Positions 2,101 to 3,112 of a stretch of 6,618 nt of DNA are shown piece by piece. The DNA is from a virus. Its lineage: Duplodnaviria > Heunggongvirae > Uroviricota > Caudoviricetes. The stretch lies in the IMG/VR virus record IMGVR_UViG_2534681999_000015. One strand, written 5' to 3'. Within the stretch, counting starts at the first letter, position 1. The number at the start of each line of letters is the position of its first letter. The notes under the pieces were generated by a model. It was not told the origin of the DNA. It saw only the letters and a program-made list of their open reading frames with translations, and made no database searches. Made by a program: the position numbers and the translations under genes.

Positions 2101-3112
2101 AAAGGTGAAAACCGGCAGTTCATCCAGTAAGTCAGTATTGACCTGGCTTGCTGATATGTGCGGTGCCGATTTGTGTGCATACCCGTCTGTATCTGCACTG
2201 GCAGAAGTAACGGAACTGAACAAAAAGACTGTGCAGGACAGCTTACGACACCTGATGGAGATTGGGTTAATTGTTGATACCGGTGAGAGAAAAGGCAGAA
2301 CAAAGCAAATTGTGGTGTACCGACTTATCGGTGTAGAAGAAAGTGTTGCCGAGCCTGAATACACCCAAAAACGGGAGTCTTTAAAGGTGGGTAAAATTGG
2401 TGCTGTTAATAAAAACAGTACCGAAAATGGTTATGTTTCAGCACAAAACAGACCCAAAAACAGAACTCTTAGCTGCATGGAAAATAACCAAAGACACCCA
2501 AATTTTCCATCAAAGACACCCAAAAACGGATCACGGAACCCAAAGGAACCCAAAGATCTAAACCCCACACATAACGCACGCGAGAGTGCTCCGACCAGTG
2601 AGCAGGAAGTTTTGTCGTTACAGGCAGCCCCCCCTGTATTCCTGTATGGCCTGAGCGAACCCATCGGAAAATTCCCGATGAGCGATAGCTGGTATCCGTC
2701 ACGGGATTTTCGACGACGGGCTGCGTTGTGGGGGATGGCTTTGCCGGAGACAGAATTTACACCTGCTGAACTTGCCGCCTTCCGGGACTACTGGGCAGCG
2801 GAGGGGAAAGTGTTTACGCAGATTCAGTGGGAGCAGAAATTCGCCCGTCACGTAAATCACGTCAGGGCGCAGGTTAAACCAGTCAGCAAAGGGGTAAACC
2901 ATGCAGCAGCACCAGGTGGCACCGCATCACGGGCAGTTCAGGAAATTCGGGCAGCACGTGAGCAGTGGGAACGTGAAAACGGATTTATCAGCGACGGAAA
3001 CGGCCTGGAAGCTGTGGGAACTCATGGGGGTGGTTTATTCGAACCGCTGGATCCAGAAGAACGGGGCCGCACCTTCGAAGCTCTGGATTGCACAGATTGG
3101 CGCGATGACTGA
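2072..3112 (+). CDS. Phage replication initiator/replisome organiser (O-like): N-terminal HTH domain, low-complexity linker, C-terminal DnaT-like domain
   Basis: ATG 2072 preceded by a G-rich SD (AGGGGGG 2062-2068) and overlapping the upstream stop by 29 nt; preferred over the track start at 1997, which would overlap by about 100 nt. N-terminus MSIDALRWAKKV...SVSALAEVTELNKKTVQDSLRHLMEIGLI is HTH-like. C-terminal WYPSRDFRRRAALWGMALPETEFTPAELAAFRDYWAAEGKVFTQIQWEQKFARHVNH matches the DnaT-like domain of phage replication proteins. Confidence 0.8.
   Translation: MSIDALRWAKKVKTGSSSSKSVLTWLADMCGADLCAYPSVSALAEVTELNKKTVQDSLRHLMEIGLIVDTGERKGRTKQIVVYRLIGVEESVAEPEYTQKRESLKVGKIGAVNKNSTENGYVSAQNRPKNRTLSCMENNQRHPNFPSKTPKNGSRNPKEPKDLNPTHNARESAPTSEQEVLSLQAAPPVFLYGLSEPIGKFPMSDSWYPSRDFRRRAALWGMALPETEFTPAELAAFRDYWAAEGKVFTQIQWEQKFARHVNHVRAQVKPVSKGVNHAAAPGGTASRAVQEIRAAREQWERENGFISDGNGLEAVGTHGGGLFEPLDPEERGRTFEALDCTDWRDD
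2361..2556. repeat. Iteron-like direct repeats (core ACCCAAA) inside the initiator gene linker; putative prophage origin of replication
   Basis: ACACCCAAAAACGGG (2361-2375), GACCCAAAAACAGAAC (2451-2466), AAGACACCCAAATTTT (2491-2506), AAAGACACCCAAAAACGG (2512-2529) and an exact tandem GGAACCCAAA x2 (2535-2554). An AT-rich stretch (2389-2450) lies among them and GATC sites at 2528-2531 and 2555-2558. Lambda has the same layout: ori iterons in the linker of gene O. Confidence 0.5.

Follow-up and report, generated by a model that had tools for sequence, protein, structure and literature searches.

The window analysed here, 6,618 nucleotides of a Caudoviricetes record (IMG/VR IMGVR_UViG_2534681999_000015), is the early-right region of a lambdoid prophage, and it carries an array of direct repeats within its O-like replication initiator gene. 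From the sequence, and by analogy with phage lambda, we propose that positions 2357-2556 are probably the initiator-binding part of the prophage replication origin, built like ori-lambda. The repeats are most likely iterons of a phage origin embedded in its own initiator gene, an interpretation that is well supported by comparative evidence. A preliminary description of this stretch had argued that the DNA, and not the encoded peptide, is constrained at this place; the copies lie in different reading frames, the linker that they encode is predicted to be disordered, arrays occupy the same position of the gene in relatives and the array moves together with the N-terminal domain, all of which bears out that constraint acts on the DNA rather than on the peptide. 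Initiator binding, DNA melting, helicase loading and the activity of the origin are suggested by the analogy with lambda O and P. On this reading the array is a further, previously undescribed case of a textbook arrangement, an iteron origin in a lambdoid initiator gene, rather than a new type of element, and it leaves the understanding of phage replication unchanged.

The preliminary description had reported at least six copies of an ACCCAAA-core repeat, including an exact tandem 10-mer. ACCCAAA does occur six times in the window, on the plus strand only and at 2363-2554 (starts at 2363, 2452, 2496, 2518, 2538 and 2548), against an expectation of 1.26, a count reached by 1 of 200 shuffles, and Tandem Repeats Finder (TRF) likewise returned the 10-mer, GGAACCCAAA, at 2535-2555. 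The heptamer is thus enriched, yet it is not the true unit of the repeat. A repeat finder and the comparison with relatives give a unit of about 18 nt, AAAGACACCCAAAAACGG, a consensus of the form CCC / A-tract / GG core, which has three matches at no more than three mismatches, against an expectation of zero. Of the six ACCCAAA copies just four are iterons conserved in position; the other two belong to the tandem 10-mer, a lineage-specific form that stands in place of a conserved non-iteron element of the relatives, CGGAATCTACCAGGAACCTAAAGATCT. The 18-mers at 2357-2529 comprise four well-formed copies (2357, 2446, 2490, 2512) and two decayed ones (2383, 2413), listed in Table 1. Their cores are spaced by 22, 33 and 44 bp, and about 89 bp (28+28+33) separate the cores on either side of the two decayed copies. 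With some 11 bp to the turn, these distances come close to whole numbers of helical turns, a periodicity for which the preliminary description had advised looking, and would allow binding along a single face of the helix. A chance origin of the repeats is ruled out by the shuffles and by conservation. Promoter, terminator and Rfam scans of 2300-2600 found nothing, so that an internal promoter, a terminator or a known RNA is not the explanation. The inverted repeats of the region (I1-I8) were also considered and rejected, being short, imperfect and not conserved. A separate observation concerns decayed iteron 2, in which the ancestral CACCCA at 2387-2392 has become GTGGGT, its exact base-by-base complement and not its reverse complement.

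Arrays of this kind are widespread among initiators with a homologous N-terminal domain, and the concern raised beforehand, that functional homologues might lack the repeats, was not borne out. Seven other phages with such a domain (EPP-1, phiV10, Bcep176, AP22, Vibrio H20, Edno5 and Mcat8) carry three to seven iteron copies straight after it, mostly variants of (A/T)CCCAAAA(N2)GGGA, the repeat of Mcat8 being unrelated. A protein search with a 103-aa N-terminal query returned mainly short fragments. A genomic scan limited to one genome per species, its pattern taken from an alignment of five sequences (an 11-sequence alignment was too divergent), gave 46 loci, 44 of them usable. At 33 of these 44 loci, which span many genera, the 12-mer repeated most often across the whole 3.2-kb locus has four or more copies between +240 and +520 nt, counted from the start of the gene. 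The repeat sequence differs between lineages (CCCAAAAACGGGA in enterics, AAACAGTCCCAA in Acinetobacter, CACCCCCGAACG in Desulfovibrionaceae and GGAAAACCATAC in Methylococcaceae), as expected if the binding sites and the DNA-binding domain evolve together. The density of the core motif is 24.8 per kb in the linkers of ten relatives and 0.38 per kb elsewhere in those loci. In an alignment of ten enteric sequences from seven genera, the core of iteron 6, CCCAAAAACGG, is invariant in all ten and iterons 1, 4 and 5 are conserved in position, iteron 5 being kept as CCCAATTTT or CCGTTTTT in every one of these relatives. The array is followed in all relatives, regardless of the C-terminal domain, by a post-iteron element, CGGAATCTACCAGGAACCTAAAGATCTAAA, which contains a GATC site and ends in AAAGATCT; at 2532-2560 the window has a variant of it, part of which has become the tandem 10-mer. 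HTH_36-type initiators, from Enterobacterales to Acinetobacter, Burkholderia, Vibrio and Desulfovibrionaceae, thus usually carry an array of their own at a fixed place in the gene, and this fixed position could help to annotate phage origins. Right after the array phiV10 has a second short tandem repeat (AACCAGTCATAT x3, 1810-1845) and so does Bcep176 (AGAACAGTAGGAACAGT x2, 1942-1977); these could be further origin elements.

The position of the array agrees with the domain structure of the initiator, which existing records label just 'DnaT-like ssDNA-binding domain-containing protein'; the Prokaryotic Genome Annotation Pipeline (PGAP) places its coding sequence at 2072-3112, as we do. Residues 1-92 (2072-2347, plus strand) are modelled confidently by AlphaFold2 as a winged helix, with a predicted local distance difference test (pLDDT) score of 83-95 and an H-H-H-H-beta-hairpin topology, and we presume this domain to be the one that binds the iterons. 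Foldseek matches of this domain are all winged-helix DNA binders, generic and with E above 1e-3, and sequence and fold searches of the PDB likewise gave generic winged-helix matches alone, none specific to Rep or O proteins. The linker, residues 93-164, has a pLDDT below 50 and is predicted to be disordered. It is followed by a DnaT domain at residues 201-267 (2672-2872, plus strand; PF17948, 61 bits against a cut-off of 25), for which DnaT structures are found in the PDB (6aep at E 1.7e-19, 6aep and 4ou6 at E of about 1e-18 to 1e-19); the threshold of the full-length DnaT equivalog is missed (93 bits against 201). The repeats encode residues 96-161, and the low pLDDT of the linker together with the limits of the DnaT domain confirms their earlier placement between the two domains. 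PHROG 1032, 'replication initiation protein', matches the initiator at E 9e-91. Among the plasmid Rep families Rep_3 and RepA-pi-RepE there is no Pfam match, and RP-C scores 16.5 bits, below its cut-off. The pairing of an O-like with a P-like gene, also proposed beforehand, is upheld by PF17948 in the initiator and PF06992 in the product of the next gene. Many E. coli and Klebsiella database alleles of the initiator stop at 159-170 aa, right past the iteron-coding linker (for example ...KDLKPHT*), a pattern suggesting that the A/C-rich domain junction has been frameshifted repeatedly.

Exchange of the C-terminal domain shows to which part of the gene the array belongs. In the window, Scandinavium, Enterobacter and Kluyvera, this N-terminal domain with its iterons precedes a DnaT-type C-terminus; in EPP-1, Edwardsiella, Plesiomonas and Serratia it precedes one of the Phg_2220_C type. 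In the alignment the two C-terminal classes diverge immediately past AAAGATCTAAA. Conversely, ydaU of Rac-SA53 and phage pPE4 match the initiator gene only at query positions 481/485-1041. From 2552 onward, through the second, DnaT-like half of YdaU and the P-like gene, the DNA of Rac-SA53 is 90% identical to that of the window; the N-terminal domain of YdaU is DUF1376, and its gene is without the CCCAAAAACGG array. As swaps of the C-terminus keep the array and the YdaU gene with its DUF1376 N-terminus does not have it, the array belongs to the N-terminal module. The Edwardsiella phage EPP-1, isolated by plaque assay, is a close parallel with the other C-terminus, and has prophage homologues in Edwardsiella, Plesiomonas and Serratia. 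Its N-terminal domain is 72% identical to that of the window, its iterons are positionally orthologous and have the same consensus, and it has the post-iteron AAAGATCT element and a downstream P-like gene as in the window; its six consensus iterons, at spacings 26/33/33/33/22, outnumber those of the window, and its P protein is full length (245 aa).

In ori-lambda the iteron array likewise lies inside the initiator gene, between the N-terminal DNA-binding domain and the C-terminal domain. The four annotated lambda iterons (TCCCTCAAAACGAGGGA and variants) share with the window a CCC / A-tract / GGG theme and occupy the equivalent place in gene O, and the four good iterons of the window equal the lambda number, where Shiga toxin (Stx) phages such as 933W have six-iteron origins. 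In lambda and the window alike a P-type helicase loader gene directly follows, cro precedes the initiator gene in the early-right operon, and the N-terminal domains of both initiators match PHROGs 678 and 345, 'replication initiation O-like'. The two systems differ in that the C-terminal domain of the window is DnaT-like and not of the lambda O type, and in that its iterons, of about 18 nt, are irregularly spaced (22-56 bp, against 20-24 bp in lambda). Lambda O has been described by HHpred as HTH_36 followed by Phg_2220_C (Brezellec et al., PMC5509034), the architecture found in the EPP-1 initiator. The two-domain architecture of the window appears to be that of DopC (HTH_36 + DnaT_C), a chromosomal, domesticated protein whose gene is paired with a lambda-P-like gene and which is reported to be without iterons and not an origin; the hosts of DopC and DopE are Cellvibrionales and Oceanospirillales (Brezellec et al. 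2017, PMC5509034). The initiator of the window is thus the DopC architecture in phage form, borne by a prophage and with the array retained. Our literature searches turned up no account of iterons in these initiators, and the paper on the Eru classification of Stx-phage replication regions does not mention iterons. Iteron plasmids (pPS10, F, R6K, P1) encode Rep proteins, which are winged-helix initiators, and have iterons of 19-22 bp. The window resembles them in its predicted winged-helix initiator and in direct repeats at roughly whole helical turns, and differs from them in having no Rep_3-type family match and in carrying the iterons inside the gene; helicase loading would proceed through the P-like protein, by analogy with lambda, and not through DnaA and DnaC as in these plasmids.

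On the lambda model, rightward early transcription from the cro-side promoter would express the initiator, whose N-terminal winged-helix domain would assemble on the four good iterons (2357, 2446, 2490, 2512) into an O-some-like complex. The DNA would then open close by, the only relatively AT-rich DNA being 2377-2445, within the array, and the C-terminal DnaT-like domain together with the adjacent P-like protein would deliver the host DnaB to the opened DNA. In a rather unlikely variant of this scheme, initiators of this class, with a winged helix and a DnaT-type ssDNA-binding domain, would open their origin otherwise than lambda O does: melting would take place inside the array itself, at 2377-2445, where the decay of two iterons has left the lowest-GC DNA of the gene, with no separate AT-rich element. 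The DnaT-like domain would then capture the single strand and pass it to DnaB by way of a short P protein, the N-terminal part of which would be read from a second frame across the 3' end of the initiator gene (2901-3112).

The distribution of the module adds to the picture. O157:H7 chromosomes are 100% identical to the window, the locus there adjoining ompW, for which we take yciD to be the older name, and the 'PPompW' prophages of O145:H28 are 99.7% identical. At least 80% of 1300-3600 (the cro-like to the P-like genes, the initiator included) is found in 907 of 5,426 complete E. coli genomes, and for a module of this spread, the O157:H7 and O145:H28 prophages among its carriers, we offer a concrete, testable candidate origin and a consensus iteron. 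The Qin prophage of K-12, with which the window had rightly been contrasted, keeps only the dicC-ydfX part of the region. Prophage Sp9 of strain Sakai is located at yciD (PMC8190617). It has a lambda-type helicase loader and is reported to be packaged and to circularise spontaneously, with no amplification by mitomycin C (PMC2669165), the latter consistent with a repressor that is without a peptidase domain. This behaviour fits a usable replication module and is no proof of one. In addition, two small circular E. coli records deposited as plasmids, pZ1323HEC0067-2 (NZ_CP148379.1, 8,461 bp) and pZ1322PEC0161-3 (NZ_CP148543.1, 15,643 bp), both contain the repressor, cro, ydaT, initiator and P-like genes with adjacent prophage genes (hokD, rem, paa), and neither record has an annotation for any other replication gene or states a replicon type. 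Either lambda-dv-like replicons or artefacts of long-read assembly could account for them.

A number of observations count against reading the array as an origin. At the level of the protein, the N-terminal domain gave no BLASTP alignment with lambda O and an hhalign probability of 5.9%, the initiator had no match to PF04492 (Phage_rep_O) at E below 0.01, and its score for HTH_36 (PF13730) is 20.9 bits against a cut-off of 25; homologues that do pass HTH_36 are 35-79% identical to its N-terminal domain, and those at 35-72% score 30-49 bits. At the level of the DNA, an AT-rich stretch next to the repeats had been claimed, and 2377-2445 is indeed such a stretch, but it is modest and lies inside the array, over the two decayed iterons: the 40-mer of lowest GC in the gene (2376-2415) has 30% GC, whereas lambda has a 40-mer of 20% GC to the right of its iterons. 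No such lambda-like tract was found flanking the array, and the DNA downstream of it has 55% GC. By the simple 12-mer test, 11 of the 44 genomic homologues show no clear array, and literature searches found no binding or replication data for this initiator family. Finally, the allele itself is diminished. Relatives have consensus iterons at positions 2 and 3, where the E. coli lineage shows decay; iteron 4 (CCCAAAAACAG) has acquired an A in place of G at 2462; and the strict core pattern has two distinct matches in the window against 5-7 in relatives.

That the DNA repeats just mirror a repeated peptide (K-T-P-K-N-G) or a biased composition is hardly credible. The linker peptide is of low complexity (PKNGSRNPKEPK), and in phiV10 and Vibrio H20 every copy lies in one frame at 24-nt spacing, as a peptide repeat would have it. 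In the window, however, the frames of the successive core starts are 1, 0, 0, 2 and 0, so that one DNA unit is read as YTQKRE, RPKNR, HPNFP and TPKNG across three frames; the copies of Bcep176 occupy all three frames, and copies lie in more than one frame at 31 of the 33 genomic loci with an array. As copies in differing frames cannot be explained by a peptide repeat, the reading frames rule this explanation out, and it is further opposed by spacings that are indivisible by three (22, 44 and 89 nt, also 17 and 26), by the predicted disorder of the linker and by conservation of the DNA beyond that of the flanking coding sequence, the 28-nt block around iteron 1 being identical in EPP-1 at 28 of 28 positions and the coding flanks at 67%. 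It is also quite improbable that initiator binding to the repeats serves autoregulation or copy control alone, through titration or handcuffing, with initiation elsewhere in the prophage. Plasmid iterons serve both initiation and control, and this speaks for such a role, as does the failure to find a strong AT-rich unwinding element beside the array. The array is nonetheless distant from the promoter region and poorly placed for repression, the window has no second repeat cluster except a 2-copy 23-mer at 754-797, and the intragenic iterons of Stx phages are the origin (PMC7466680), as by annotation are those of lambda.

We regard it as unlikely, if deserving of more attention than the two foregoing ideas, that the array is a decayed relic, derived from a working origin that no longer fires in a defective O157 lineage and kept by recent ancestry. 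The strict-consensus iterons reduced to two, the decay at positions 2 and 3 and the derived base at 2462 are what a relic would show, and so are a nonsense mutation in the neighbouring DUF1627 gene, initiator alleles (P0001 and P0004) frameshifted at the domain junction, and reports that Sakai Sp9 (yciD/ompW) has defects in several functions and that its DNA does not amplify after mitomycin C (PMC2669165). Polymorphism in E. coli speaks against a relic. In 52 haplotypes, obtained by an IMG/VR scan with the N-terminal domain (E. coli loci 99-100% identical, used for polymorphism and not for the comparative analysis), iterons 1, 5 and 6 together have 2 polymorphic sites in 62 nt and the surrounding 227 nt have 48 (p = 6e-4), with no site in iteron 1 and one in iteron 5. 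Iteron 4 is variable, with 7 sites in 20 nt, and 62 of 80 near-identical IMG/VR loci have a G at 2462, which restores CGG and the consensus CCCAAAAACGG. We conclude from these sequence comparisons that the array is reduced yet apparently still under constraint. The initiator and P-like frames are moreover intact, four iterons are the lambda number, and the module is present in the 907 genomes mentioned above. Sp9 is reported to be packaged, as well as to circularise spontaneously, its O and P having been judged 'apparently functional' (PMC2669165), and the 8.4-kb circular record carries the module with no other annotated replication gene.

The P-like helicase loader gene, which follows the initiator gene, probably starts at 2901, upstream of its annotated start. 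Its frame is open from 2898, and the ATG at 2901 gives a protein of 221 aa that overlaps the last 212 nt of the initiator gene (2901-3112); PGAP annotates the 153-aa form only. The protein matches PF06992 at 59.6-61.2 bits against a cut-off of 26, as well as PHROG 109, 'P-like helicase loader', and the Pfam match is longer with the 221-aa form. The overlap is conserved in five relatives, including Scandinavium, Enterobacter, Kluyvera and Rac-SA53, with 215-257 nt open, an ATG about 212 nt before the initiator stop and a product of 221-223 aa; it is not kept in phiV10. Within the overlap, conservation is stronger in the initiator frame over the first half and in the P frame over the second.

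Table 1. Features of the 6,618-nt window, in order of position
Feature	Coordinates	Strand	Remarks
Repressor gene	854-1261	minus	no peptidase domain
P22-Cro-like gene	1338-1565		
YdaT-like gene	1549-2100		
Initiator (O-like) gene	2072-3112	+	346 aa
Iteron 1, GAATACACCCAAAAACGG	2357-2374	+	2 mismatches to the 18-mer
Candidate unwinding region (predicted)	2377-2445	+	lowest-GC part of the gene, 35% GC
Decayed iteron 2, AAAGGTGGGTAAAATTGG	2383-2400	+	aligns with consensus AAAGACACCCAAAAACGG of EPP-1, Edwardsiella, Plesiomonas, Serratia
Decayed iteron 3, AAACAGTACCGAAAATGG	2413-2430	+	aligns with ACCGAAAACGG and CCCAAAAACGG iterons of relatives; repeat family D3
Iteron 4, AAACAGACCCAAAAACAG	2446-2463	+	A at 2462 derived
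Iteron 5, AAAGACACCCAAATTTTC	2490-2507	+	variant right arm; repeat family D2
Iteron 6, AAAGACACCCAAAAACGG	2512-2529	+	perfect consensus, 0 mismatches
Exact tandem 10-mer, GGAACCCAAA x2.1	2535-2555	+	TRF
Module boundary	2552-2556	.	homology to initiators with a different N-terminal domain starts (Rac-SA53, pPE4 matches)
Lambda-P-like helicase loader gene	2901-3566	+	annotated start 3105 (153 aa); probable start 2901 (221 aa)
DUF1627 gene			
paa adhesin gene			
hokD/sok			

Among the neighbouring genes (Table 1), the DUF1627 gene, whose ATG is at 3600, is cut short by a TAG at codon 18 (3651-3653), where the O145 PPompW copy has GAG; the gene is thus interrupted in the O157 allele, and PGAP restarts it at 3654. 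The 23-nt tandem repeat at 754-797 (AAGCTTCTTGTGTAGAAAAACCT x1.9) lies directly downstream of the 3' end of the repressor gene. At the far side of the window, 6141-6290 matches the Rfam sok antitoxin RNA (103.9 bits) beside an open reading frame for a hokD-type toxin, which points to a module of the hok/sok type.

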